Positions 5,404 to 52,794 are shown, counted from the first letter of the stretch. The stretch is DNA of 56,496 bases from a virus (IMGVR_UViG_3300027782_000104:1-56496); one strand, 5' to 3'. Notes: generated by a model not told the origin, from the letters alone. A program made the numbers and translations.

Positions 5404-7206
5404 TTAAAAATTAATGATGACTTTAACGTCTTCTGTTTGTTCTAGCGCTCTACTAACAGGAGCTCTGTTTTCAGTATATATTACTAATCCGCTGTACTTT
5501 TTTAGAGCACCAGAAGTGACTGATTGCACGTTAGCAATTCTGGTACTAATAGAACCCTGAACGATTTCACCTATTTGAAACGAACCGCCTGTTCCGTTTG
5601 TTGTGATTCTAATTAATTTTAAATCACCCTTAGTTCTTGCACTATCAGTATTCGCGAAATATACTAAACGACCTTTAGCGCCACTCGACAACCCAGTTAC
5701 TACTTCGTCTGCAACAAAATCACCAGAAACTTCATTCACATTTACTCGTGTCGTCTGATCTAATGTAGAAACAGTAGCAGCAGAACCATTAGCTAACAAT
5801 GGGTCACGCATAATACCGATTAATCTGAAATCGTTATTTGTAGGAAACGTATTAGATTCGGCTCCAGAAACTCGAATATTCATTAAAATACTAGTAGCGT
5901 ACAATTCATCGACCGGATCACTGCCGTGCCCATTTCTAGGGGAAATTATAGCACGAGCAGTAGCACCATAACCATGTGATGAATTAGCACTAATCGTTAC
6001 GTTTGCAGTAGAATATGAACGACCCTGATTAATCATAGTTATCTTACGAACTCGACCAGCGAATGTATTAGATACGTATGCGTCCGAGCGAGATAACAAA
6101 GTGCCACCACTATCGCCTCGTATAGTGACCAAAGGAGAAATTATATATCTACTTGATGTGGTAGGTGTACTAGTGAAAGCAGAATTTACAATACAATAAT
6201 TGTTAGAACCATAATACTTAACGATTTTACGGACTTCACCTGAAGCGGGACCAGAACTAATAAAAAGCCCAGAACCATTATACACACCATCAACAACACT
6301 AGCGTCTGTTTTTAATGTAAATGCGGATTTACTAGAAACAGAAGCAAAAGTATTTGTTGTAGTTAAGTAATTAGCACCGTTCGCAATAACTTTAATGTAA
6401 TGTATAGCACCATTAGCAGCAGATGTCTGAACATCCCACTGATCACTACTATCATCAGCTGCTAGAGTTTTAACAGGGATAAAATCCGTAGTTAGAAATT
6501 TTAGTGCGCTGGCAGCAGTTATTGTATACATATATTTCCAACGATAACCATCAGTAGTAGAAATTATATCGTTGGTTACAACTCCAGTTGGTTCTACAGT
6601 AGATGCAGAATTTCTATTATTTTCAATACACTTATATACATTGCCTGCTGTTGTAGTAACATAATACTGCTTTTCATCAAGAATAGGATCTAAGTCATCA
6701 TATTCAGCATATGATGTGCCAGATATCCATTTATTTCTAGCAGCAACATGACTAACATCAGAAAACTGAATGCGTTTAGCCGCGATCATGTTTCGCCAAA
6801 TATCAAAATAGGTGTCTTGATATCTATCCACTGGAGCAATAGGCGTATAGTCTGAGTATGGTAAACGAACATATAGATTAGCACCTACTGTGGTTGTGGT
6901 AGTAGGTCTAATAGCAGAAATAAATGTTTGCGCGTTAGGTATAGAATGCACTCGCAAATCTTGTGAAGTGCCAGTAACTCGTACAATAGCTCCATTAGTC
7001 AATTCAGTATCAAAATACGTTCCGCTACCAACAACTGTATTAGATGTGCTGGTTATTTTTACTGTTCCTCTTGTAGGAACAGCATTTGCAGAAGCGTAAT
7101 TCTTACCGATAAAATAGTAATATCGAGTAGAAAGAGCTTCATTGAAAGATTCATAAAACTGAATCGCGTTGTGAATCCTAAAATGATGAGTTACTATAGC
7201 AGTCAT
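5404..7206 (-). CDS. gp8: Baseplate wedge subunit gp8-like
   Basis: Motifs YYYFIGK, WRNMIAAKRI, VYKCIENN, DGYRWKYMYTI, GHGSDPVDEL, NDFRLIG, YTENRAPVSR..QTEDVKVIINF; position next to gp7/gp6. Confidence 0.85.
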   Translation of the reverse strand: MTAIVTHHFRIHNAIQFYESFNEALSTRYYYFIGKNYASANAVPTRGTVKITSTSNTVVGSGTYFDTELTNGAIVRVTGTSQDLRVHSIPNAQTFISAIRPTTTTTVGANLYVRLPYSDYTPIAPVDRYQDTYFDIWRNMIAAKRIQFSDVSHVAARNKWISGTSYAEYDDLDPILDEKQYYVTTTAGNVYKCIENNRNSASTVEPTGVVTNDIISTTDGYRWKYMYTITAASALKFLTTDFIPVKTLAADDSSDQWDVQTSAANGAIHYIKVIANGANYLTTTNTFASVSSKSAFTLKTDASVVDGVYNGSGLFISSGPASGEVRKIVKYYGSNNYCIVNSAFTSTPTTSSRYIISPLVTIRGDSGGTLLSRSDAYVSNTFAGRVRKITMINQGRSYSTANVTISANSSHGYGATARAIISPRNGHGSDPVDELYATSILMNIRVSGAESNTFPTNNDFRLIGIMRDPLLANGSAATVSTLDQTTRVNVNEVSGDFVADEVVTGLSSGAKGRLVYFANTDSARTKGDLKLIRITTNGTGGSFQIGEIVQGSISTRIANVQSVTSGALKKYSGLVIYTENRAPVSRALEQTEDVKVIINF

Positions 7207-23028: not shown

Positions 23029-26000
23029 ATGGCCAAAGATAAAAGAATTGTAGCAGGCGTTATAAGCGATACGAAATACTATTACGCAAGTGATGGTTCG
23101 GTCGTTGACGAAGATGGTAAACCAGCACCTGCTAAATTCGCGGCTATGTTTCCGCCTATGCCTGAGCAGAAACCTGAACCTGTCAAGGAAACGAAACCTA
23201 AGAAAACACGTCGCAAACTAAAAGACCTTGCGGGTAGAATTAAGAACTCGAAATACTATTACGATGCCGAAGGCAATGTCGTAGACGAAGAAGGTAAACC
23301 TGTAAACGAAAAACTCGCTGGATATTTCGGTAAGCGAGAAGAGCTGCGTAAAGACATACCTAAAGTAGAACCTAAGAAACAAACTGATATGATTGACGGC
23401 AAAAGATTGCGAGTCATAAATTCAGAAATAGGTAAAGCTATACGAAGCACGCAAAATCTCGTACAGTCTAACGAAATAATTCAAGATAAAATGACGACTA
23501 TGTTTGACTCGTTTAACGACGTAGTCAAAACACTAGGCGACCAGAACGACGCGATCGTACAACGACTAATTCAACAGAACCAAGAGTTTCAAGATAAGGT
23601 CATAGAAACATTATCTGGAGTTCCGGGAGCTACAAAAGCAGGTGGTGCTAAACCAAAAAAGATAAATCCTAGAGCAGTTGGTGGTTCTAAGGCAGCTAGA
23701 GGAACAGAACTCAAAGTAAAGACAACCAATTATCGCGAAACTCGTAAACAAGAAGTCGAAGATCGCGCGCGACGCATAGCTGAGATTAAAACTAAACGCG
23801 ATATTAAATCTATAGTTGTTGGTTCTTTGATAGGAGCAACTGCTGGTATTGGTGCTGGCGCATTAATTTCTGCTATCACGCCTAGCACAACTGCTCCATC
23901 AACTCCTACTCCTCCAGGAGGTGCTCCAGGAGGAACTACTCCTAGTGGTCCAGGCGGAGGTAACGGAGACACGACTCCTGGCAGCGGAGGCATGACTCGA
24001 CTAAAAACTAAGAGCGGAAAAGCATACGAGGTCGACTCTAAATTCGCTGCTAATTTCAAAGGATTTGTTGACGAGCTCGAAGCCGCTGGATATCAAATCA
24101 AAAGTATTGGAGGATACAGTCCGCGCCCAGGATGGCACGGAAAAGGTATGGCGATTGATATTAATCCCGACCAGAATCCTATGCTCATTAATTCTGGCGG
24201 TAGAATTATAAACAAACTCACTGGACAAGAGTCTAGTAATCTAAAGAATTCTAAGTATCCATTTGGTTACGGTACTGATAATTTCGGTTCTATTGACGTA
24301 AGTTCTATGGCTAGAAAATGGGGACTTGGTTGGGGTGGAAATTGGAAAAGTTCATCAGACACAATGCACTTTTCTGCTGGAGCAAACGAAGGTGGAACTG
24401 GAGTTGTGCCTGAAGGAGGTCCTCAAGTTGCGGTTAATGGTGGCGCAGGTGCAGGTTCTCCTACAGGTGGAATAGCACCAGCACCTGCACCTGCGCCACC
24501 AGGAACAGGAACAGGTGGAGTAGGTACTACTCAGGCTCCGGGAGCAGGCTCTATATCAGCAGGAACATCTGGTGCTGGTGCGGCTCCAGGAACTATCGCA
24601 AGAATCAATGAAGTAGGTCCTGGATATAATGTTGTTCAGCTTGGTGATGGAAGCGTAGAACGTCGCGCAGGCGCACGAAACTGGAGAAACAATAATCCCG
24701 GAAACATTGAATACGGCAGCTTTTCTAAATCAGCTGGTGCGATAGGTTCTGATGGTAGATTTGCTATATTCCCTTCGTATGAAGTGGGTCGTGCTGCTAA
24801 AGAAAAACTATTGTTCGAAGGTCGTTCTTATAGCGGAATGAGTATTCAGCAAGCGATATATAAGTATGCTCCTCCTAGTGAAAATAACAGTGCTGCTTAT
24901 GCCGCGAATGTAGCTGCTGCAGCGGGTGTTTCACCTTCGACTGCATTGACAGCTTTGAATGCTGATCAAAGAAAAGCCATGCTCAACGCTATGGAAAAGG
25001 TTGAAGGATTCAGATCAGGAAAAATTACAAAAGTCAGCGAAGGCAATACTCAAGTTGCTTCAGCTGGAACTCCTCCTAAAGCATACGCCGCTGGTGATCC
25101 ATATGTTCCTAACACTGGACCAGCAATCGTTGGTGAAAGAGGTCCTGAATTAGTCATAGGTAAAGATGGTTCGTCTAGATTAACAGGAGACGGTCCTCGT
25201 ATTGAAAACTTGAATCAGGGTGATTCTGTTGTTCCTGCTGATAAGACCAAAAAATTAATGGGTTATGCTGAAGGCACGTCGGCTGACATTACGAAATTAT
25301 TGCCAGCCGTTAATTATGAAATGGATAAAAACTCCTATTTCAAAAAAGGAGAACTTAACAGATATGAAACAGATCCTCGTCCTGATCTACCATTAGGATC
25401 ATCAGCAGATCTGTTTTATAACGGTGATGAAAAGACTAGAAAAGCGCGACTACTAGATTATCAAACTAATCCAGATTCTGAAGGTAAATCAGCATTTGAA
25501 GCTGGTTATCAGTATCGTGGTTTTAGTAACATGTATAATAAAGCTGGTGATATCGGCAGACCTGAAAAGAAAATGAGCGACGTATCTTACAGCGAACTCA
25601 TCGAGCGTTCGAAACGAGCTGATGTTGAAACATTAAAGCCTGGTGAAGGAATCTTTGGATATGCTGAAGGCACATCTTCTGCGGATATCTTAAAGCTATT
25701 GCCAGCCGTTAATTATGAAATGGATAAGAATTCGTATTTCAAAAAAGGAGAACTTAACAGATACGAAACTGATCCCCGTCCCGATTTACCATTAGGTTCA
25801 ACAGAAGATTTATATTTTAACGGCGATGAAAAGACAAGAAAAGCTAGATTATTAGATTATCAAACAAATCCTGATTCTGAAGGAAAAACTGCATTCGAAG
25901 CAGGATATCAGTATCGCGGTTTCAGTAATATGTATAATAAGGCTGGCGATATTGGTGGACCTGAAAAGAAAATGAGTGATACTTCGTATAGCGAGCTGGT

Positions 26001-26670
26001 CGAACGTTCTAAGCGACCTGATGTTGAAACACTAAAGCCAGGTGAAGGTGTTTTCGGTAAGCTTGAAGGATATGCTGAAGGAACTTCTAATTCTAAAGAT
26101 TTTGAATTTTTAAACTATAATCCTCTCGGTGGTTTCGTCAACGATAAAAAAATTGACCAATCGCTTGTTCAGTTTAGACGTCGCGCGCATGGGCAACGTA
26201 TGTCTGAATCTTCGGCGGAAGATAGAAAAGGTTTCGAACGAATTCAAAAAGGTGCGAGCGGTGAAGATTATGGCGCACATAATAGAACATTTTATTATGA
26301 AAAAGATATCCCAGGGCTCAACGGTTTAACTAGAAATTCAGTAACCGCAACAGGATATTATAATCCTATTACGGATAAACATTATTCACCAGAGTCTGGT
26401 ATCAAACAAAGTCAACGTAGTTCTCCAGAAGCAATTAAAAGCAAACTTGAAATGTGGAACATAAACGCAAATGCGATGTCAGAACAAAATGCAATGCAAG
26501 AATATACTCAACCTCCAGCAGTGAAAACAGTAGTAATTAATAACAATAGAACAAACAACGTAACAAAAACAGTCAATCAGGGTTCATCTCTACCTCAGTT
26601 AGATAGAAACGAATCAGCTAATCCGCTCGCACAGGGTGGCAATAAACGTACTGCTATGGGAGCATTCTAA
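23029..26670 (+). CDS. Tape-measure/hub-like virion protein with M15-type peptidase and lysozyme-like domains
   Basis: Follows gp26/gp51. Coiled-coil N-terminal region; GGYSPR..WHGKGMAIDINP..WGGNW..DTMHF (peptidase M15); RNNNPGNI..GRFAIF..YAPPSENN (lysozyme-like); GPAIVGERGPEL (tape-measure C-terminal motif). Confidence 0.78.
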   Translation: MAKDKRIVAGVISDTKYYYASDGSVVDEDGKPAPAKFAAMFPPMPEQKPEPVKETKPKKTRRKLKDLAGRIKNSKYYYDAEGNVVDEEGKPVNEKLAGYFGKREELRKDIPKVEPKKQTDMIDGKRLRVINSEIGKAIRSTQNLVQSNEIIQDKMTTMFDSFNDVVKTLGDQNDAIVQRLIQQNQEFQDKVIETLSGVPGATKAGGAKPKKINPRAVGGSKAARGTELKVKTTNYRETRKQEVEDRARRIAEIKTKRDIKSIVVGSLIGATAGIGAGALISAITPSTTAPSTPTPPGGAPGGTTPSGPGGGNGDTTPGSGGMTRLKTKSGKAYEVDSKFAANFKGFVDELEAAGYQIKSIGGYSPRPGWHGKGMAIDINPDQNPMLINSGGRIINKLTGQESSNLKNSKYPFGYGTDNFGSIDVSSMARKWGLGWGGNWKSSSDTMHFSAGANEGGTGVVPEGGPQVAVNGGAGAGSPTGGIAPAPAPAPPGTGTGGVGTTQAPGAGSISAGTSGAGAAPGTIARINEVGPGYNVVQLGDGSVERRAGARNWRNNNPGNIEYGSFSKSAGAIGSDGRFAIFPSYEVGRAAKEKLLFEGRSYSGMSIQQAIYKYAPPSENNSAAYAANVAAAAGVSPSTALTALNADQRKAMLNAMEKVEGFRSGKITKVSEGNTQVASAGTPPKAYAAGDPYVPNTGPAIVGERGPELVIGKDGSSRLTGDGPRIENLNQGDSVVPADKTKKLMGYAEGTSADITKLLPAVNYEMDKNSYFKKGELNRYETDPRPDLPLGSSADLFYNGDEKTRKARLLDYQTNPDSEGKSAFEAGYQYRGFSNMYNKAGDIGRPEKKMSDVSYSELIERSKRADVETLKPGEGIFGYAEGTSSADILKLLPAVNYEMDKNSYFKKGELNRYETDPRPDLPLGSTEDLYFNGDEKTRKARLLDYQTNPDSEGKTAFEAGYQYRGFSNMYNKAGDIGGPEKKMSDTSYSELVERSKRPDVETLKPGEGVFGKLEGYAEGTSNSKDFEFLNYNPLGGFVNDKKIDQSLVQFRRRAHGQRMSESSAEDRKGFERIQKGASGEDYGAHNRTFYYEKDIPGLNGLTRNSVTATGYYNPITDKHYSPESGIKQSQRSSPEAIKSKLEMWNINANAMSEQNAMQEYTQPPAVKTVVINNNRTNNVTKTVNQGSSLPQLDRNESANPLAQGGNKRTAMGAF
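25261..26067 (+). repeat. Tandem duplication of a ~132-aa domain
   Basis: GYAEGTS(S)ADI.KLLPAVNYEMDKNSYFKKGELNRYETDPRPDLPLGS...DVETLKPGEG occurs twice (starts 25261 and 25657); a third GYAEGTS at 26068. Confidence 0.95.
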
Positions 26671-29285
26671 TGGCTATATCGAAACTCGTTAAGTCAGGTC
26701 AGTCATTTGATCGTCCCAGCGTTTCTGCATTCTTTGGTAAAGCTGGTCCTGCGAACGATAATCTACAGAAACAATCAGATATGTTTTCTGGAGGTAATTT
26801 CGTCAGCAGCATCACGAATATGTTGCAACAACTTAATGGTCAGTTGCAAAAACTACAAGAAACTTCTCAGAAAACGATACTTGCGTTCAATAAGATAATC
26901 AAAGATATTCGCGACGTTAAAAAAGATATCGTATCAAAGTTTCGCATCGTTAACAACGAATTGAATTCTAACAAACTTGATTTCGTCAATGGCATACGAG
27001 GAGGCGAACTACCTAAACCAATAACAATGCCAGAACCAGGAACTCCTGTTCCTGCGAACGCACCTGCGGCTGCAGCAGCTGCTCCTGCTGGCGGTGGATT
27101 TGATTTATTTTCTTCACTAGCAGATTTGCTAGGCGGTGCTAGTTTATTAAAAGATCTTATCAAGTGGGCTCCAAGAATTGCTCCTATACTTGGTTCCGCA
27201 ACGGTAATTGGATTAGCTGGATATGCTACATTTGAAGCTTTCAAAAAGGCTATGTTTAGTATAGCCGAAATCGCTGATTGGGTTGAAGAAAAGCTTGGGT
27301 TGAAAAAACTATACAAAGAACGTATGGAAACTCAAGAATATAAGGATATGCAGGACACGCAAACTAAGATCACCGAAGACGCTCGCAAAACGAACGTTGA
27401 TAAGGGTGATCGTATTAAGATGATGCAGAAAACTCTTGATGATAATAAGCTGCAAAAGAAAGACGTTAAGACTCTACAAGGCGATATCATTACGATGATT
27501 GATGGTCGTCAGTTTGATATTAAAACTCAAAAACCAGTAGAAGCAACACCAGACACTACTACGGCTGCTCCTGCTGCAACACCTGCTGCTACTACTCCAA
27601 GCGCACCAACCGATAATGCGCAAACTCCTGCTGCAGCAGCACCTGCAGCAACTGCTCCTACTCCTGGAGGCGCAGCAGAAGATAAGAAAACTCCCGAAGC
27701 TCCAGCAGGCGGTGGAGGCGGAAGCGGAGGCGAAGGTGGTGCAGGAGGTTCTCCTGCAGCTAGCGCTCCTGCAACTACTCCTGCTGCTCCTGCTGGCGGA
27801 GGTGGCGGAGGTGAAGGTTCTCCTGCAGCTAGTGCTCCTGCGACAACACCATCTGCTCCTACTGCAACACCATCTGCGCCTGGTTCTAATGCTCCCGCAC
27901 CTATGCCTGCTCCAGCTGCTCCATCAGCAGGAACTGGTGGTGTAGGTTCTATTCAAGCACCAGGCGCAGGATCGCCAACACCAGCAACCACACCTCCTGC
28001 TGCTACTCCTCCCGCCGCACCTCCAGCAGGAACACCAACTCCAACAGCTAGACCTACTGGAGATGAATTAAAAGCTTTAGGAGGAATAGAAAGAACAACT
28101 CCAACTGAGCAAGCGCAGCAACAAGCACAACAGAACACTGCTGCTATTCAGAATCCTATGGCTCTTATGGCAGCTAAGATGGAAGCTGCTAAACAAATCG
28201 ACGAAAATAAACCGAAAGCTGCCGAACCAAACACAATTGTTAAAGGTGAAGCACCTGTTTATACCGCTATGGGCGATCTTGCGATGCCAGGAACTCCTGA
28301 TCAAAAGTTTGTTGGATCAGGAAGAGGTTCGGTTGTTGAAGGATTAAACGACAGAGCTAATGCTCAAGCAGTTGGTTCTGGTCGCGGTTCTGTCATCGAA
28401 GCTCCTGGAGCACGAGCAGCTGCTAATGCGCCGAAACCAAAACCAGCTGCTCCTGTTGCCTCTGCACCTGTAGTAGATCCGCACGCTAAATCTAAAGCAT
28501 TATTCCAAGAAGTGTTGGATATCGAAAAGCAAGGTGGTAACAGCACAGCAAAATATTTTGAAGCTGATAAACAACGTATGGCTGAACTTGCTGCTATTAA
28601 AGATAAACCAGCAGAAGGGGCTCCAGCGGCAGCTAAGAAAACTGCGCCTAAAAAAGAAAAAGAAATGTCCGCTATGGACAAAATGCGTATGGGTCGCGGT
28701 GCTGGTGATCATACTGCTCCTATGGGATTAGGAGACGAATCTGCTGGATATACAGGAGCTGCGGGTGATATACTACAGGCTGGATTAGATCAACAGAAAG
28801 CATTAAATGCTGGACCCGAACCTGGATATAGCGGAAAAGGTGGTCAAGTTCTACAGACTAATCTTAATGATGCAGCTGTTGTTGAAGCAGAACAGCAAAA
28901 AGAACGCGCAGCAGCTGCACAGAAAATGCAAGCAGTTGACGACGCTGACATGGCTCGCGCTCCAGGTGAACGCTCAGTCATGGCAACAGACCAAGCTAAG
29001 ATAGAAGCTATTAAATCTGGAGTGACTCCAGCTGCTGCTGGTGCAAGAACATTACGTCAAGCTGGAGCACAAATTGGCCCTAAACCAGCAGACTTAGAAC
29101 CTCCACCGAAAATGTCAGATCAAGGTGCAGGAGAACCTCAAATTCAAAATAACAACCAGACGCAAAATAGTGGAACATCTTCTGGTGGTGAAGGTAATAA
29201 TGTTGCTGGGCAAAACCTTCCTATGAAAGCAACTAATGATTGGTTGAAAGATTTTATCGAACGTCAGCAAATATCTTATCAATAA
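26670..29285 (+). CDS. Second tape-measure/hub-like protein, Ala/Pro-rich
   Basis: 871 aa, coupled to the previous stop. Coiled-coil N-terminus, hydrophobic segment, long low-complexity linker, NNNQTQ near the C-terminus. Confidence 0.65.
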   Translation: MAISKLVKSGQSFDRPSVSAFFGKAGPANDNLQKQSDMFSGGNFVSSITNMLQQLNGQLQKLQETSQKTILAFNKIIKDIRDVKKDIVSKFRIVNNELNSNKLDFVNGIRGGELPKPITMPEPGTPVPANAPAAAAAAPAGGGFDLFSSLADLLGGASLLKDLIKWAPRIAPILGSATVIGLAGYATFEAFKKAMFSIAEIADWVEEKLGLKKLYKERMETQEYKDMQDTQTKITEDARKTNVDKGDRIKMMQKTLDDNKLQKKDVKTLQGDIITMIDGRQFDIKTQKPVEATPDTTTAAPAATPAATTPSAPTDNAQTPAAAAPAATAPTPGGAAEDKKTPEAPAGGGGGSGGEGGAGGSPAASAPATTPAAPAGGGGGGEGSPAASAPATTPSAPTATPSAPGSNAPAPMPAPAAPSAGTGGVGSIQAPGAGSPTPATTPPAATPPAAPPAGTPTPTARPTGDELKALGGIERTTPTEQAQQQAQQNTAAIQNPMALMAAKMEAAKQIDENKPKAAEPNTIVKGEAPVYTAMGDLAMPGTPDQKFVGSGRGSVVEGLNDRANAQAVGSGRGSVIEAPGARAAANAPKPKPAAPVASAPVVDPHAKSKALFQEVLDIEKQGGNSTAKYFEADKQRMAELAAIKDKPAEGAPAAAKKTAPKKEKEMSAMDKMRMGRGAGDHTAPMGLGDESAGYTGAAGDILQAGLDQQKALNAGPEPGYSGKGGQVLQTNLNDAAVVEAEQQKERAAAAQKMQAVDDADMARAPGERSVMATDQAKIEAIKSGVTPAAAGARTLRQAGAQIGPKPADLEPPPKMSDQGAGEPQIQNNNQTQNSGTSSGGEGNNVAGQNLPMKATNDWLKDFIERQQISYQ

Positions 29286-47984: not shown

Positions 47985-48821
47985 TTATGCGAAGAACGAG
48001 TCGAGATTGTTAGTGAACTGGGAACTCTCGTATGCCTTTTTCCACTGGATACGGACTTCCTTGCGATTTTCCATTCCCATCTTACCCCATGCACCTTCCT
48101 TTTCTACGACATCCACGAACTGTGGAAAATACTTTCGGAGCTCGTTCGCAGCTTGTTCTTGCAGTTCCTTATTGCGGAACGTGGAGTTGCCACCTGCGCT
48201 GTTATGATTATAATTGAAAAAGTATTTATAGATAATGGCGTTCTTGAATCCCTTCGTCAGCATTGACAACGTGATCCAGTAGTCTTCATAGAGCTTGATG
48301 CTCTTGTTCTGCTGATACATCCCGTCGAAACGAATCCCCTCGCGCTCCATCCAGTCTGTGCGTAGTCCGTACGTCGCGTATGCGCGACCCACTTCCTTGA
48401 TGTCCTCCTCCACGTGATTGTTTCCACCGCGAGCAGAAAAGCCGACTTGCATATACTCTTCGAGCATACTGTCGACCAAAGCATACATCCTCAACCATTC
48501 TTCTTCTTCCATCCCGTTGAACTGCTTCAGCTCTTCGTTACGCCAACCAAACGTAGCAAGGTCGTCAATGAACCAGACCTTTCCCTTGCCTACAGCAGGA
48601 TTGTCAATACAGCGTTGCCTAATATCAGCAATCCCATCAATATCACTGGGATTAGCAATAATACGGATACTATCAGGAATATGAGGTCGAAGGTTGGAAA
48701 CGCGATCTTCTCGCGTGAAAACATAGACGTTCTCGTGGAGCGTCTTGGGAATCTGAAAAACTGCACGTTGGTTATCCTCGCGCATGAAGGTTGTGATGAT
48801 AATCTTAAGGGGTAAACTCAT
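47985..48821 (-). CDS. TET-associated (GREB1-like) glycosyltransferase
   Basis: I.T..R, GIA.IRQ, WFIDD (GT-A DxD), EDY...L..L..G, GGNS..R, L...FP..V, I.WKKA; in an operon with the TET/JBP gene. Confidence 0.78.
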   Translation of the reverse strand: MSLPLKIIITTFMREDNQRAVFQIPKTLHENVYVFTREDRVSNLRPHIPDSIRIIANPSDIDGIADIRQRCIDNPAVGKGKVWFIDDLATFGWRNEELKQFNGMEEEEWLRMYALVDSMLEEYMQVGFSARGGNNHVEEDIKEVGRAYATYGLRTDWMEREGIRFDGMYQQNKSIKLYEDYWITLSMLTKGFKNAIIYKYFFNYNHNSAGGNSTFRNKELQEQAANELRKYFPQFVDVVEKEGAWGKMGMENRKEVRIQWKKAYESSQFTNNLDSFFA

Positions 48822-49197
48822 TCTGGAATCCTTCGAGTGTCATGGCTTTATCGTCGATGTACCACATTCCATATGGCTTACCGAACACGAGTTGGTCGAA
48901 TGGGATTTCGTTGCGGTCAAGCCAATCTACAGTGATTTGGCTGAGCTTATTGAAACAGGTCTCAACATCATTTAGCTGAGAGCGCATATGGCGCGCAGTC
49001 AGAATGGTGATGTACCATCCGTTCTTGTGACACTCGCGCAACTTTTCTACGATAGGAGTGTTTGGCGTAGTGGAACCATAACGAGTACGCGAATCCTCGA
49101 TAGATACGTCAGCGAAACTGAGCGTATCATCGAGGTCGAACACTAGGCTTTTATCATACAAATCCGCTGTCTGCGGACGCCTTACGATACAGTGCAT
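48805..49197 (-). CDS. Small HAD phosphatase (capsule-biosynthesis-phosphatase-like)
   Basis: FDLDDTL, TAR.M, WL....IP.D.L.FGKP, YIDDKA. The real start may be the TTG at 49161. Confidence 0.85.
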   Translation of the reverse strand: MHCIVRRPQTADLYDKSLVFDLDDTLSFADVSIEDSRTRYGSTTPNTPIVEKLRECHKNGWYITILTARHMRSQLNDVETCFNKLSQITVDWLDRNEIPFDQLVFGKPYGMWYIDDKAMTLEGFQNEFTP

Positions 49198-50749
49198 AGA
49201 AAACTTCCTGATTGGTCCTGTTATGTGAATGAAGTGGTATCATACTCAAAAACAGAGACGCTGTCAAGAACAAAGTTAAACGCCAAACCTTATCGCCATA
49301 TTTGGCTACGAAAGCAGTCTTGTAAGCTTCACGCGCAGCTTCTTTGCCAGCATCAAAGATTATGATATCGTCGCCTTTCTTGACATAGAGCTCAGCGTCG
49401 ATATAGTCGTAGGGATAGTAGGCGGAATGTGTGAGCTTGGCTAAGTCATACAGAATATTACCATACGCATCACCACGAGGGTCGATGAGCTTTATCTGTT
49501 TGCTGCCAGGATGATAGAAAATGTTCGAGAAGCAGAAATCGCCATGCGACAACGAGTCAGACCAATGAACAAGAGTTTCTTCGTCTTCCTTCATTTCATC
49601 GAACTTGCGCAGGAACTCACGCGCATGGTCGAAATCGAAATCAGGAAGCTCTTGTTCAATCATGAAGAATCGTTCCCAGTTCTTTTCGGACATCTTATTG
49701 AAGAACTCGGAATAGACACCTGGCTTATAGTAGAACCTGAACTTATCCAAGATATCAAACAACTTGGTATAGATTTCTGTCCAGAAGATTGGGTCAGATT
49801 CAAGATACAGATAAAGCTCACGCAACGTAGGACTATCAATACGCTCCATCGTGTAGGTAGGACGTCCGCTTTCTACGCTACCATATGGTTTCTTTTCAAG
49901 GATACGCGGAGTCAGCAACTTGATAGGAGTCGGAAGATTTTCGTACCAGTTCATCTCAGCATGAATCTTAGCTGGTTGCATATGAGACGACTTGGTGATA
50001 GTCGTTCCCTTATCCGTAGCATGAACCTGATTAAACTCACGCGAGTTCTTGATGCCGCGATTCTCAAGATACTCTTGCAACGTACCAAAGTCTTTGATAC
50101 TGATTTCCTTAACCTGAATTTCTTCCTTAGCCGTATAACGTGTCATGGCGTACGAAATCTGAACCTCACCATCACGCACGCGAGCGCTGTAGATTGCTTC
50201 ATGCAACGACTCACGCAAAAGCGCACCATTTGCGAAATAGTAAACTCCGCTCACGGCAAGATTCGTAGGAGGCTTATCAGCAGGCTTATCATGAAATGCT
50301 CTGATGCGATTATCACCCACTTCAGCCATACACCAGCGATTCCAGTCAGGAACTTTCTGTACGCTAATCCAAGAAACAGAACCTGTAGCGAACCACATAT
50401 CAGGAACAGTCTTGACGATGATATCACTCAACAGAACAAGAACTGGCTCGTTGATAGTTTCAGGAATACCGCAGTAGATAGATACGGCAGGACCACCATT
50501 TCCGATATCAACATAGTCTTCGAAACGAATCCTATCATCGTCCGGATAATACATCTTCACAATCTCAATGATGCGATGACCCTGATGACCCGTAACGATC
50601 GTGACGATACGAGCACCAGCTTCAAGCGCGAAACGGATGTTATGAACGATGATAGGAATTTCTTGATACGGCAGGACGCACTTAGGATAGTTCTTACCGA
50701 GTTCGTTGAACCGAACGCCGCGTCCTGCCGCAGGAATCACACAATGCAT
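49154..50749 (-). CDS. Sugar-phosphate nucleotidyltransferase fused to an APH/choline-kinase-like domain
   Basis: N-terminal VIPAAGRG.RF..L....PK..LP, LSD, AVSGVYYF, DFGTL. C-terminal R.FN, K...E..WY..LP, HGDFCFSNI, IDPRG, YD.AKL.HS, SLFLSMIPLH. Confidence 0.88.
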   Translation of the reverse strand: MHCVIPAAGRGVRFNELGKNYPKCVLPYQEIPIIVHNIRFALEAGARIVTIVTGHQGHRIIEIVKMYYPDDDRIRFEDYVDIGNGGPAVSIYCGIPETINEPVLVLLSDIIVKTVPDMWFATGSVSWISVQKVPDWNRWCMAEVGDNRIRAFHDKPADKPPTNLAVSGVYYFANGALLRESLHEAIYSARVRDGEVQISYAMTRYTAKEEIQVKEISIKDFGTLQEYLENRGIKNSREFNQVHATDKGTTITKSSHMQPAKIHAEMNWYENLPTPIKLLTPRILEKKPYGSVESGRPTYTMERIDSPTLRELYLYLESDPIFWTEIYTKLFDILDKFRFYYKPGVYSEFFNKMSEKNWERFFMIEQELPDFDFDHAREFLRKFDEMKEDEETLVHWSDSLSHGDFCFSNIFYHPGSKQIKLIDPRGDAYGNILYDLAKLTHSAYYPYDYIDAELYVKKGDDIIIFDAGKEAAREAYKTAFVAKYGDKVWRLTLFLTASLFLSMIPLHSHNRTNQEVFYALYRKASADSGFV

Positions 50750-50763
50750 AGTATATCTCCTTC

Positions 50764-52185
50764 TTAGAAAGTTTGCTCGAGACCAAGCTTATTTAGAACC
50801 TCGTTTGCCTGCTCTAAGAATCCGTTATGACCAAGATAGTTCGCCCACTCTACTGTATCCCACATTCCAGGAGACACACCATTCCAGCTATCAGAGAGCA
50901 CACCTTGTTCATTCTTAGGACGGTCTGGATGCTCCTTACTATCGCGACGCATATACACAAACTCGCGACGACATTCTTCATACTTACGCGAACCACAACT
51001 AATCATAGACTCACGGAAATACATGACCACACTCATACGCTCGAAACCTTCTTCGTAGTCGAACGCAGGTGAGTTGCTATGAATACGATGAGCATTCATC
51101 ATAATCATATCACCGGCGCGGATATCAACAGCAACGCGGAACTCGGGAAAGCAAAGATAGAAACCATTATATTGCTTACCATTATCAAGAACGAGTAGAT
51201 TGCTGAATCCCTTAGGAATATTAACGCCTGGAGTTTCGTAGCATTCACACAGATCACCAACATCTCTATGAGCAGCAGTACGAAAATCGCGATTGATAGT
51301 TAGAGTCGTATAGACAGTATTACCGATACGCCAATCTTCACCGATTTGCTTCATAGCTTCCGCTTGACCTGCCCAGCGAATAGGGACTTCGCGCTTGAAT
51401 ACTTCATTAGCAGCTTCGAACAGAGCAAGAGAAGCTTCGTATTTATCTTTGTTGTTCGATTGCCATCCAGTTTCACGGCAGAAAGGAATACGTGGATATC
51501 TATCCATGAAACCACCAACACCAGAACGAACACCATTAGCATACGTTGTGTCTGAAATCATGTCGAACAGGATATGATGTGCTGCTTGACGACGCTCGTT
51601 CGCATTCTTAGTACGAACATCAGCATACCACTTGTCGAAGTCAAAGTCAAGAGCTTTAGTTTTGCCTACTATCCAGATAGCGCCTGCACGAACGTCACCG
51701 TTTTCTTTATTTCCACCAGCACCACGACCTTGCAAAGGAGTATCGGGGGTGTTTTCATAAATTTCTTGCAGTCTATCTTGGTCGTCTATAGAACGAGTCG
51801 AACCCTGAGCAAGATACTGTAGAACTGCTTTTTCGCGTTCAGTCACCCAACGGCGAGAACCTTCACCGTCAGGCAATTTCTGAAATGCAGTATCGCGTTC
51901 GGCTCCAGCAGCGAGACCGCGATTATCAGACATCATAGCGCCACTACGCAAATGTTTGAATGCGGCGTCTGTCATTTCTTTAGGGAACACATTCTTACGA
52001 AACTTGCATAGCAAATTACGTTCGCTATGCTCTTCTCCCAAAGCTAACTGAAATGGCGTCAACGGCTCATAGACGTCTGTATCTTCTGTTAGCACCAAAT
52101 CATAACAATCATGGTCTAGAAACTTGCCTAGTTTATCATTGAGTTGGTTCAACTGTGAATGTTCGAGATAGATTTTCTTAACCAT
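50764..52185 (-). CDS. TET/JBP-family 2OG-Fe(II) dioxygenase (pyrimidine 5-methyl hydroxylase)
   Basis: SGV.GFMDR.PR.P.CR.T, TVYTTLTIN..FRTAAHRD.GD (HxD), L.FPE..VAVD...GD...M..H..H.N, R.S.V.Y.RE.M..C. Confidence 0.85.
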   Translation of the reverse strand: MVKKIYLEHSQLNQLNDKLGKFLDHDCYDLVLTEDTDVYEPLTPFQLALGEEHSERNLLCKFRKNVFPKEMTDAAFKHLRSGAMMSDNRGLAAGAERDTAFQKLPDGEGSRRWVTEREKAVLQYLAQGSTRSIDDQDRLQEIYENTPDTPLQGRGAGGNKENGDVRAGAIWIVGKTKALDFDFDKWYADVRTKNANERRQAAHHILFDMISDTTYANGVRSGVGGFMDRYPRIPFCRETGWQSNNKDKYEASLALFEAANEVFKREVPIRWAGQAEAMKQIGEDWRIGNTVYTTLTINRDFRTAAHRDVGDLCECYETPGVNIPKGFSNLLVLDNGKQYNGFYLCFPEFRVAVDIRAGDMIMMNAHRIHSNSPAFDYEEGFERMSVVMYFRESMISCGSRKYEECRREFVYMRRDSKEHPDRPKNEQGVLSDSWNGVSPGMWDTVEWANYLGHNGFLEQANEVLNKLGLEQTF

Positions 52186-52215: not shown

Positions 52216-52794
52216 CTATGTATGCTTTAGAAGATTCTCATAAGTGTTGATAAACACATTTTTACCATATACTGGATTAATTGTCAAGTCATTTGGGAAA
52301 ATAAAAATGAAGTCAACCTCAGGATGTTGGTTTACAAGCCATTGAACATAACGAATACGTCCGGGATTATCATTCGCGCTCGCGCGAGTTTCCATACCAT
52401 AGTTATCTGTGCCATGATAGAGATTAGACACAGACTGATTAGCATCACTAATCATAAAGTCAAAGCCCATGCAAATCAACTGGTCGAAATCCAGCTTGAT
52501 TGCTTCGCGCATAGCATTGACACCAGCATTACTGCGCGGGCGTCCTTGATTACAAGAAGCTGGTTCCCAGCGTTCATCAATCGGTGGAAAGATAACACGT
52601 TTCGATGGGAAATCAGAACTTTCAATTTCTGTCATGATGCCGTCGTCGATAGCAACAAGATAATCAGGAATCGAGTGGTCTGGGAAATCTCTATAGAGCG
52701 CATTGCATCCAAAGATAGTCCCGTATGGTTTCAGCCTCGTGAGGTCAAACGACTTACGAGACGTACCATTACCGATGATAAACGCTGTATTCAT
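52216..52794 (-). CDS. Rossmann-like GT29/MptE-like protein
   Basis: AFIIGNGTSR..FDL, GCNALYRD..PDYLVAID, G..A...A, GFD. Confidence 0.6.
   Translation of the reverse strand: MNTAFIIGNGTSRKSFDLTRLKPYGTIFGCNALYRDFPDHSIPDYLVAIDDGIMTEIESSDFPSKRVIFPPIDERWEPASCNQGRPRSNAGVNAMREAIKLDFDQLICMGFDFMISDANQSVSNLYHGTDNYGMETRASANDNPGRIRYVQWLVNQHPEVDFIFIFPNDLTINPVYGKNVFINTYENLLKHT

Follow-up and report, generated by a model that had tools for sequence, protein, structure and literature searches.

Phage gene clusters that unite a TET/JBP-type dioxygenase with a glycosyltransferase (GT) were reportedly described by Iyer in 2013. Here we report on such a pairing in IMGVR_UViG_3300027782_000104, a viral record of 56,496 bp that is called the window below. 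Its open reading frame (ORF) listing places four packed minus-strand genes at 47985-52185, in the order TET/JBP dioxygenase (TET), nucleotidyltransferase-kinase fusion (NTK), small HAD phosphatase and GT. We consider it likely that they constitute one DNA-hypermodification operon of a T4-like phage that provides its own sugar donor. The 5-methylpyrimidine dioxygenase (5mYOX), the TAGT-family GT and the AfhE/AfhF-like donor module are already known as types; new are the combination of the donor module with TET, the missing isomerase and the kinship to BcbE/BcbF.

According to O'Toole et al. 2026, phage 5mYOXs without an adjacent C5-methyltransferase are inferred to be T-dioxygenases, the ParB-independent subclass of T-dioxygenases is often found with GTs, and APH and HAD are among the domains near phage 5mYOXs (Fig. 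9 legend). Unlike what we propose for the locus described here, the characterised 5mYOX-GT clusters (Burke 2021; Pyle et al. 2023, preprint; O'Toole 2026) mostly draw on host nucleotide sugars. We found no described case of a nucleotidyltransferase (NTase)-APH fusion and BcbF-type HAD together with TET in the main texts searched. A donor pathway of the same architecture is described in PMC13326640 (NAR 2026), where it makes UDP-arabinofuranose in phages HY126, RB69 and DLP3. There, AfhE (gp52:53 in RB69, gp82 in DLP3) is a bifunctional protein with an N-terminal NTase and a C-terminal kinase, AfhF (gp51 and gp81) is a small HAD protein whose best Protein Data Bank (PDB) match is 1xpj, and an SIS arabinose-5-phosphate isomerase (gp55 and gp83) supplies arabinose-5-phosphate, which passes through the 1,5-bisphosphate and arabinose-1-phosphate to UDP-arabinofuranose for DNA arabinosylation (PMC13326640). 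The same source credits the AfhE/AfhF biochemistry to He et al.

Profile searches found T4-like baseplate, tail and RNase H genes in the window. Within the cluster, TET (50764..52185) and NTK (49154..50749) are separated by a 14-nt gap, NTK and HAD (48805..49197) overlap by 44 nt, and HAD and GT (47985..48821) overlap by 17 nt; the overlapping genes imply co-translation. A strong ribosome-binding site, GGAGAAGGAG, lies ahead of the first ATG, that of the TET gene. A promoter and terminator scan returned 28 promoter-like sites against 11.9 expected and was not used as evidence. At the DNA level the cluster had no match among 50,697 phage records, and protein-level searches alone were informative.

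The first gene encodes a TET/JBP-family 5mYOX of 473 aa, which matches Pfam Tet_JBP (PF12851) over residues 231-392 (50.6 bits against a cut-off of 34.9, E 1.6e-13) and phrog_24024 (E 7.3e-99). All ten of its aligned homologues match Tet_JBP as well; residues 1-230 have no family match, and a profile search of the PDB sequences found no relative. Invariant in the ten TET sequences (alignment A5) are H306-x-D308, H366, H369 and R383; from the family motif, we take the H306-x-D308...H366/H369 set to be the Fe(II) triad and R383 the 2-oxoglutarate-binding arginine. Just past HxD, at residues ~312-325, an insert of ~11-13 residues around CECYETPGVNIPK occurs in the window's subclade only, and the other TET-linked subclades in the same alignment are without it. 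The last gene of the four encodes a TAGT-family GT-A glycosyltransferase of 278 aa with a match to phrog_842 (E 1.5e-41). Ten of the 11 members of this GT family match TAGT at E <= 0.001, the best at E 8e-11, and the acidic pair D86-D87 is invariant in the family (alignment A3). The structural model (pLDDT 85.1) has a GT-A fold, for which Foldseek returned ppGalNAc-T2, GnT-I, TarS, TarP and RmlT (E 2e-6 to 1e-4, TM 0.4-0.56); a profile search of PDB sequences gave no relative.

NTK, of 531 aa, fuses a sugar-1-phosphate NTase (~residues 1-230) to an APH/choline-kinase-type sugar kinase (~residues 235-531). The N-terminal domain matches Pfam NTP_transferase over residues 4-229 (37.5 bits against a cut-off of 21.2, E 2.5e-9), the NCBIfam GlmU, RmlA and GalU-type sugar-1-phosphate NTase families and, in PDB profile searches, GalU and RmlA (E ~1e-17). 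The AlphaFold model of NTK has a pLDDT of 88.6, and its best Foldseek matches are UDP-glucose pyrophosphorylases on the N-domain, NTase matches to this domain filling the ranks. In 16 NTK homologues, down to 32% identity, the NTase signature G9-x-G11-x-R13...K23 is invariant, as are H402, G403, D404, N409 and D423 of the kinase motifs HGDxxFxN and DPRG. Action of the kinase on DNA hydroxymethyl groups, in the manner of the P-loop 5-hmdU kinases, was considered and ruled out, the domain being of APH type with homologues in polysaccharide loci.

The 130-aa product of the third gene is a small BcbF/AfhF-type HAD phosphatase whose residues 21-25 form motif I, DLDDT. Its best NCBIfam match is TIGR01689, the EcbF-BcbF capsule biosynthesis phosphatase (E 7.3e-16), where its 58.3 bits lie well below the 162-bit cut-off and the 169-228 bits of bona fide members. 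Among solved structures its best relative is PDB 1xpj (E 2.9e-15), followed by 9iqw, a 'capsule biosynthesis protein' (E 0.0028); no papers naming PDB 9IQW were found. It also matches phrog_1238 (E 2e-19).

Linkage was examined in 54 phage loci (L001-L054), of which 52 came from a scan of viral contigs with the NTK alignment and two, Stenotrophomonas phage DLP6 and Enterococcus phage 9183, from GenBank. HAD adjoins NTK in 47 of the 54 (phmmer), and the other seven contigs break off within NTK or at its edge. Of the 54 loci, 32 have TET and 27 have TAGT, in each case contiguous with the NTK-HAD pair, and GT is contiguous with TET in all 27 loci that have GT and enough sequence. The four genes occur in three orders: TET-NTK-HAD-GT, as in the window, GT-HAD-NTK-TET, as in DLP6 and others, and TET-GT-HAD-NTK. 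Across these order groups NTK identity falls to ~35% (range roughly 35-95%); that the genes stay adjacent at such distances while their order is shuffled strongly indicates one functional unit. A quick maximum-likelihood tree groups the TET-linked NTKs in a single 15-row clade (SH-aLRT 99), in which two rows marked as lacking TET are contigs cut just upstream of GT; left out of this tree were three of the 31 cluster representatives (L029, L049 and L052, <450 aa) and the split RB69 gene. An earlier note on this DNA had predicted a hypermodification operon from the bare sequence. Its gene coordinates and order agree exactly with the ORF listing, its four gene assignments are borne out by the Pfam and NCBIfam domain calls and the GT-A fold model, and its operon reading is supported; the recurrence of the same four genes, in three orders, on distantly related phage contigs shows the grouping to exceed chance.

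The donor pair is also found in loci without TET. In one viral contig (L024) HAD-NTK lies beside a thymidylate-synthase homologue, a dCMP deaminase, a GT-B-like protein and a C5-cytosine methylase; in phage 9183 it lies beside a thymidylate-synthase homologue, a dUTPase and a thymidylate kinase; and in L048 its neighbour is an AGT-type DNA alpha-glucosyltransferase (PF11440, E 3e-32). Two fusions on contigs of bacterial metagenome-assembled genomes, a 366-aa NTase-HAD protein beside a stand-alone kinase (L058, 8929-10029) and a 231-aa HAD-GT2 protein (L062, 6525-7220), tie the three donor steps and the transfer step together.

What was observed are the identities of the domains, the homologies, the intactness of the catalytic motifs and the conserved linkage; on these we build a model whose enzymatic steps, acceptor and sugar are all predictions from sequence. 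After replication, TET would hydroxylate the 5-methyl group of a pyrimidine in the phage DNA. For the donor, the C-terminal kinase of NTK would phosphorylate the anomeric position of a sugar that carries a terminal phosphate, HAD would strip the terminal phosphate, and the N-terminal NTase would turn the resulting sugar-1(2)-phosphate into a nucleoside diphosphate (NDP)-sugar. The TAGT GT-A enzyme would then move the sugar onto the hydroxymethyl group, and the base-J-like glycosylated pyrimidine so formed would shield the DNA from host nucleases.

As for the pyrimidine, neither the window nor the complete DLP6 genome yielded a C5-methylase, no ParB was found, and no thymidylate-synthase homologue was found in DLP6 or in the two closest long relatives of the window, G406 and G407. 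By the argument of O'Toole et al., the absence of an adjacent methylase makes the window's TET probably a T-dioxygenase. We thus modestly favour thymine as its substrate, with 5-hydroxymethyluracil (5hmU) as the putative product, and give 5-methylcytosine (5mC), which would become 5-hydroxymethylcytosine (5hmC), a somewhat lower though still substantial probability.

Several points weigh against the proposed operon and its chemistry. The window is estimated at only ~35% of a genome. The match of the NTK C-terminus to APH is weak and below the cut-off (E 0.0074, residues 380-440), and neither PDB sequence and profile searches nor Foldseek of the whole NTK found a close solved relative of the kinase domain, which leaves its substrate specificity unreadable. 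On Pfam TAGT (PF20691) the window's own GT scores 26.7 bits against a cut-off of 27.5 (E 6.1e-6), 0.8 bit short. The chemistry of the product is that of a modified nucleoside predicted from genes alone. G406 and G407 carry a C5-cytosine methylase (174-177 bits), by which 5mC could be the substrate in the window's lineage. The restriction resistance of DLP6 DNA is taken from a review table (PMC8228603), and a tie of it to the four genes is putative; the primary DLP6 paper tried 18 enzymes. The methylase genes themselves, which encode C5-cytosine DNA methyltransferases (G407:C1:51010-52053 and G406:C1:17410-18453; L101 and L102), lie tens of kb from the TET cluster, and a TET feeder and an independent anti-restriction methylase are both possible roles for them.

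The bacterial relatives of the donor pair were sought in 401 genomes of one order, the order that holds one bacterial match. TIGR01689 scored above its cut-off in 26 of them, and in 20 of 20 loci the protein encoded next to the bona fide BcbF was homologous over its full length to the window's NTK (phmmer E 1e-19 to 1e-30). All ten loci that were extended have the order HAD, ~525-aa protein, ~243-aa protein. Alignment of the ~525-aa proteins with the phage NTK runs from end to end, with every kinase motif kept; their N-domain is without the NTase signature G-x-G-x-R...K (L089-L098, alignment A4). The ~243-aa protein is NTase-like, with an hhalign probability of 96.5% to the N-domain of the phage NTK. 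A relationship of the ~243-aa protein to TAGT was ruled out (hhalign probability 0.5%); RefSeq labels the E. coli 243-aa protein (L108) 'glycosyltransferase family 2'. The bacterial arrangement thus looks like a pseudo-enzyme domain with a stand-alone NTase as its replacement, and the phage NTK like a compact version whose fused N-domain is still catalytic. In the phage pair the NTase is intact within the fusion and there is no third, ~243-aa gene, whereas the bacteria have a separate NTase-like gene; likewise the phage genes stand in a context of DNA metabolism, with DNA as the predicted acceptor, and the bacterial ones in capsule or lipopolysaccharide (LPS) loci, with polysaccharide as the acceptor.

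One of the bacterial loci lies among LPS-core genes (WavE, Kdo transferase, heptosyltransferase and O-antigen ligase). The LPS core of V. cholerae reportedly holds fructose. In E. coli the same triad is in region 2 of a kps capsule locus, together with genes for a GalE-like epimerase and a nucleotide-sugar (UDP-sugar) dehydrogenase, and its pair matches the window's at E 3e-27 for NTK and E 4e-25 for HAD (35% identity). Against the bacterial pair in general, identities are 20-26% for NTK and ~35% for HAD, and in the quick tree the window's NTK clade is separate from the bacterial one. RB69 is remote from the window: HAD and gp51 share 27% identity (E 3e-8), and the kinase core matches gp52 at E 7e-6 over 136 residues, with no significance in the NTase part. 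In sequence, then, the BcbF-type capsule pair is a far nearer relative of the window's pair than that of RB69 is. The family name and the make-up of the loci, in place of named sequences, suggest that the neighbours found are BcbE/KfoE. PMC13552107 states that P. multocida needs BcbE and BcbG for the fructose side chain of its type B capsule, with BcbF a predicted participant, and a review (PMC8858990) that deletion of kfoE in E. coli K4 loses the fructose and leaves an unfructosylated chondroitin capsule. The resemblance to BcbE/BcbF that the earlier note had drawn from recall therefore holds, given the best NCBIfam family of HAD, the NTK homologue beside BcbF in every locus counted and the E. 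coli kps pair. Of its three-step route to an NDP-sugar, the architecture is indeed that of the characterised AfhE/AfhF, and to that extent the idea is not new.

The explanations differ in the sugar that would be carried. The predicted logic, a furanose locked by its terminal phosphate, fits arabinose-5-phosphate and fructose-6-phosphate alike. We tentatively name fructofuranose from fructose-6-phosphate as the leading single candidate and think arabinofuranose unlikely, the remainder going to other sugars (ribose, a hexose, heptose). The arabinose explanation makes the module a functional orthologue of AfhE/AfhF, forming UDP-D-arabinofuranose from arabinose-5-phosphate supplied by the isomerase KdsD/GutQ of the host and leaving an arabinosyl-hydroxymethyl-pyrimidine in the DNA. 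As far as PMC13326640 goes, citing He et al., this is the only biochemically proven activity of an NTase-kinase and small HAD pair in phages, and arabinofuranose the sole sugar proven for that architecture. Window and AfhE/AfhF have in common an N-terminal NTase and C-terminal kinase beside a 1xpj-like HAD, a T4-like phage, DNA glycosyltransferase neighbours and the route, predicted for the window, from sugar-omega-phosphate through 1,omega-bisphosphate and sugar-1-phosphate to NDP-sugar; the window's HAD and gp51 fall in one PHROG annotation group ('phosphoheptose isomerase', phrog_1238), with the remote homology to gp51 and gp52 given above, and the AfhE-type gene is frequent in T4-like phages (374 records). 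This explanation is nevertheless an improbable one, for AfhE-type clusters keep their isomerase: an SIS isomerase adjoins the pair in RB69, Lazarus and S-SRM01, whereas searches for an SIS domain were negative in the window, complete DLP6, complete 9183, G407 (90% complete) and G406 (78%), with RB69 as a positive control, and the 54 phage loci hold no homologue of RB69 gp55 within 8 kb of NTK. The AfhE-type proteins of Lazarus, JS98 and S-SRM01 also form a long-branched clade in the quick tree, separate from the window's NTK and very distant, the capsule pair being far closer. Acceptor chemistry differs as well: the AfhE/AfhF phages use a pre-replicative ThyA homologue and 5-hydroxycytosine where the window has a post-replicative TET, and their GT is of the GT-B type where the window's is a GT-A TAGT enzyme.

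Somewhat more probable, and still doubtful, is the fructose version that the earlier note raised as possible; in it fructose-6-phosphate would be converted through fructose-2,6-bisphosphate and fructose-2-phosphate to NDP-fructose and a ketofuranose would be placed on a hydroxymethyl-pyrimidine. It draws on the EcbF-BcbF match of HAD, the constant NTK-homologue neighbour of BcbF, the triad in the E. coli kps locus and the kfoE phenotype, and it fits the absence of a phage isomerase, fructose-6-phosphate being available to any host, the Gram-positive one of 9183 among them. Gram-positive hosts are not known to have arabinose-5-phosphate isomerase; the kpsF family, over its cut-off in three of 14 control genomes, is uninformative on such hosts. 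The closeness to the capsule type, the lack of an isomerase and a phage of a Gram-positive host together argue for fructose or another central-metabolite sugar over arabinose. Set against this are the low identities to the bacterial pair, the shortfall of HAD on TIGR01689 and the separation of the two clades; in the literature examined the biochemical role of BcbE/BcbF is not established, and among the matches listed no activated fructose donor is described, these being papers on metabolomics or unrelated subjects as judged by title and abstract opening. Such identities, with bacterial enzymes of no known activity, speak against settling on one sugar. A further explanation uncouples NTK-HAD from TET-GT, the pair serving another glycan (a virion protein or the host envelope) or boosting a common donor while GT uses host UDP-glucose. 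It can point to the capsule and LPS loci of the bacterial homologues, to S-SRM01, whose pair lies in a fucose/GT cluster with no obvious DNA-modification gene, to Caulobacter phage Cr30 and others, which have a TET homologue with no NTK match, and to Pyle et al., where many phage TAGT-type GTs use host sugars in E. coli. We judge it highly improbable: the block stays contiguous in three orders across the divergence described, the TET-linked NTKs are monophyletic, the gene overlaps imply co-translation, and three independent kinds of genes for DNA hydroxymethylation or glycosylation have the pair as their neighbour.

In Synechococcus phage S-SRM01 (L106, 2769-5181) the SIS isomerase, NTase-kinase and HAD genes lie within a cluster of GDP-fucose, fucosyltransferase and GT2 genes, and in cyanophages the donor cassette may thus also serve non-DNA glycans. 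DLP6 (L001, KU682439.2), a cultured phage with a complete genome, carries GT, HAD, NTK and TET in a row. Some biological support for the proposed operon comes from the review table cited above, which gives DLP6 DNA as resistant to restriction enzymes. Its 126-aa HAD gene (5607-5987 in locus coordinates; E 2e-23 to the window's HAD) is unannotated and lies between AAY80_028, a TAGT homologue labelled 'hypothetical', and AAY80_029. The latter is the NTase-kinase homologue, which the DLP6 paper calls ModA ADP-ribosyltransferase, and AAY80_030, labelled 'SNF2 DNA repair protein', is the TET/JBP homologue.

Three further genes of the window were noted. Directly upstream of TET, on the minus strand at 52216-52794, is a 192-aa ORF with a single match, of its N-terminus to phrog_30607; judged by length and position, an ORF of equal length precedes TET in L005, L012, L020 and L049, and the gene may belong to the operon as a fifth one. 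On the plus strand, opposite to the surrounding baseplate genes, a 1213-aa protein (23029-26670), in which only a central endolysin/tape-measure-like segment has matches (phrog_873 and phrog_2276), is followed by an 871-aa protein (26670-29285) with no PHROG match.

The operon joins two lines that have been studied separately, post-replicative TET/JBP hypermodification and phage NDP-sugar synthesis by a module of NTase-kinase and HAD, the latter known so far for arabinosylated 5-hydroxycytosine. NTK-HAD appears as a portable donor cassette that accompanies DNA-base chemistry of at least three kinds and is homologous to bacterial genes genetically tied to capsule fructose side chains. Taken at its most specific, the proposal would be that the clade that includes DLP6 places fructofuranose on a TET-made 5-hydroxymethyl-pyrimidine, probably 5hmU, the sugar being activated as NDP-fructose through fructose-2,6-bisphosphate and fructose-2-phosphate by means of a compact, fully active BcbE/BcbF(/BcbG) machinery; we think this full conjunction unlikely. 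If true, it would be the first ketose-modified DNA and, with 5hmU, a bacterial-virus counterpart of base J, and it would give a single-protein handle on the undescribed activated-fructose donor of fructosylated capsules and LPS cores. In any case the biochemistry of the BcbE/BcbF family could come to light through the phage fusion enzyme, and new glycosylated bases are important to the ways in which phages escape restriction and CRISPR, to the engineering of phages and as enzymatic DNA-labelling tools.

In the HldE/GmhB pathway to ADP-heptose, an anomeric kinase acts on a sugar-omega-phosphate, a HAD enzyme removes the distal phosphate and nucleotidyl transfer follows, with kinase and NTase fused; the kinase and NTase folds are unrelated to those of the window, and the likeness is one of analogy only. 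Pyle et al. (2023, preprint) report for contig 53 that an HAD-APH fusion, a cytidylyltransferase and a GT-B enzyme are all required to place heptose on TET-made 5hmC, with mono- and di-heptosyl-5hmC as the products. In contig 53, and by prediction in the window, the phage itself brings an HAD, an APH-type kinase and a nucleotidyltransferase for an uncommon sugar on a base made by TET; compared by description only, the window differs in having an NTase-APH fusion and a GT-A enzyme in place of the HAD-APH fusion, separate cytidylyltransferase and GT-B. With the phage 5mYOX-GT clusters the window shares Tet_JBP beside a TAGT/GT-A enzyme and the lack of an adjacent C5-methylase and of ParB. The base J system of trypanosomes is grouped with these TET/JBP and GT systems, and the predicted product of the window is base-J-like.

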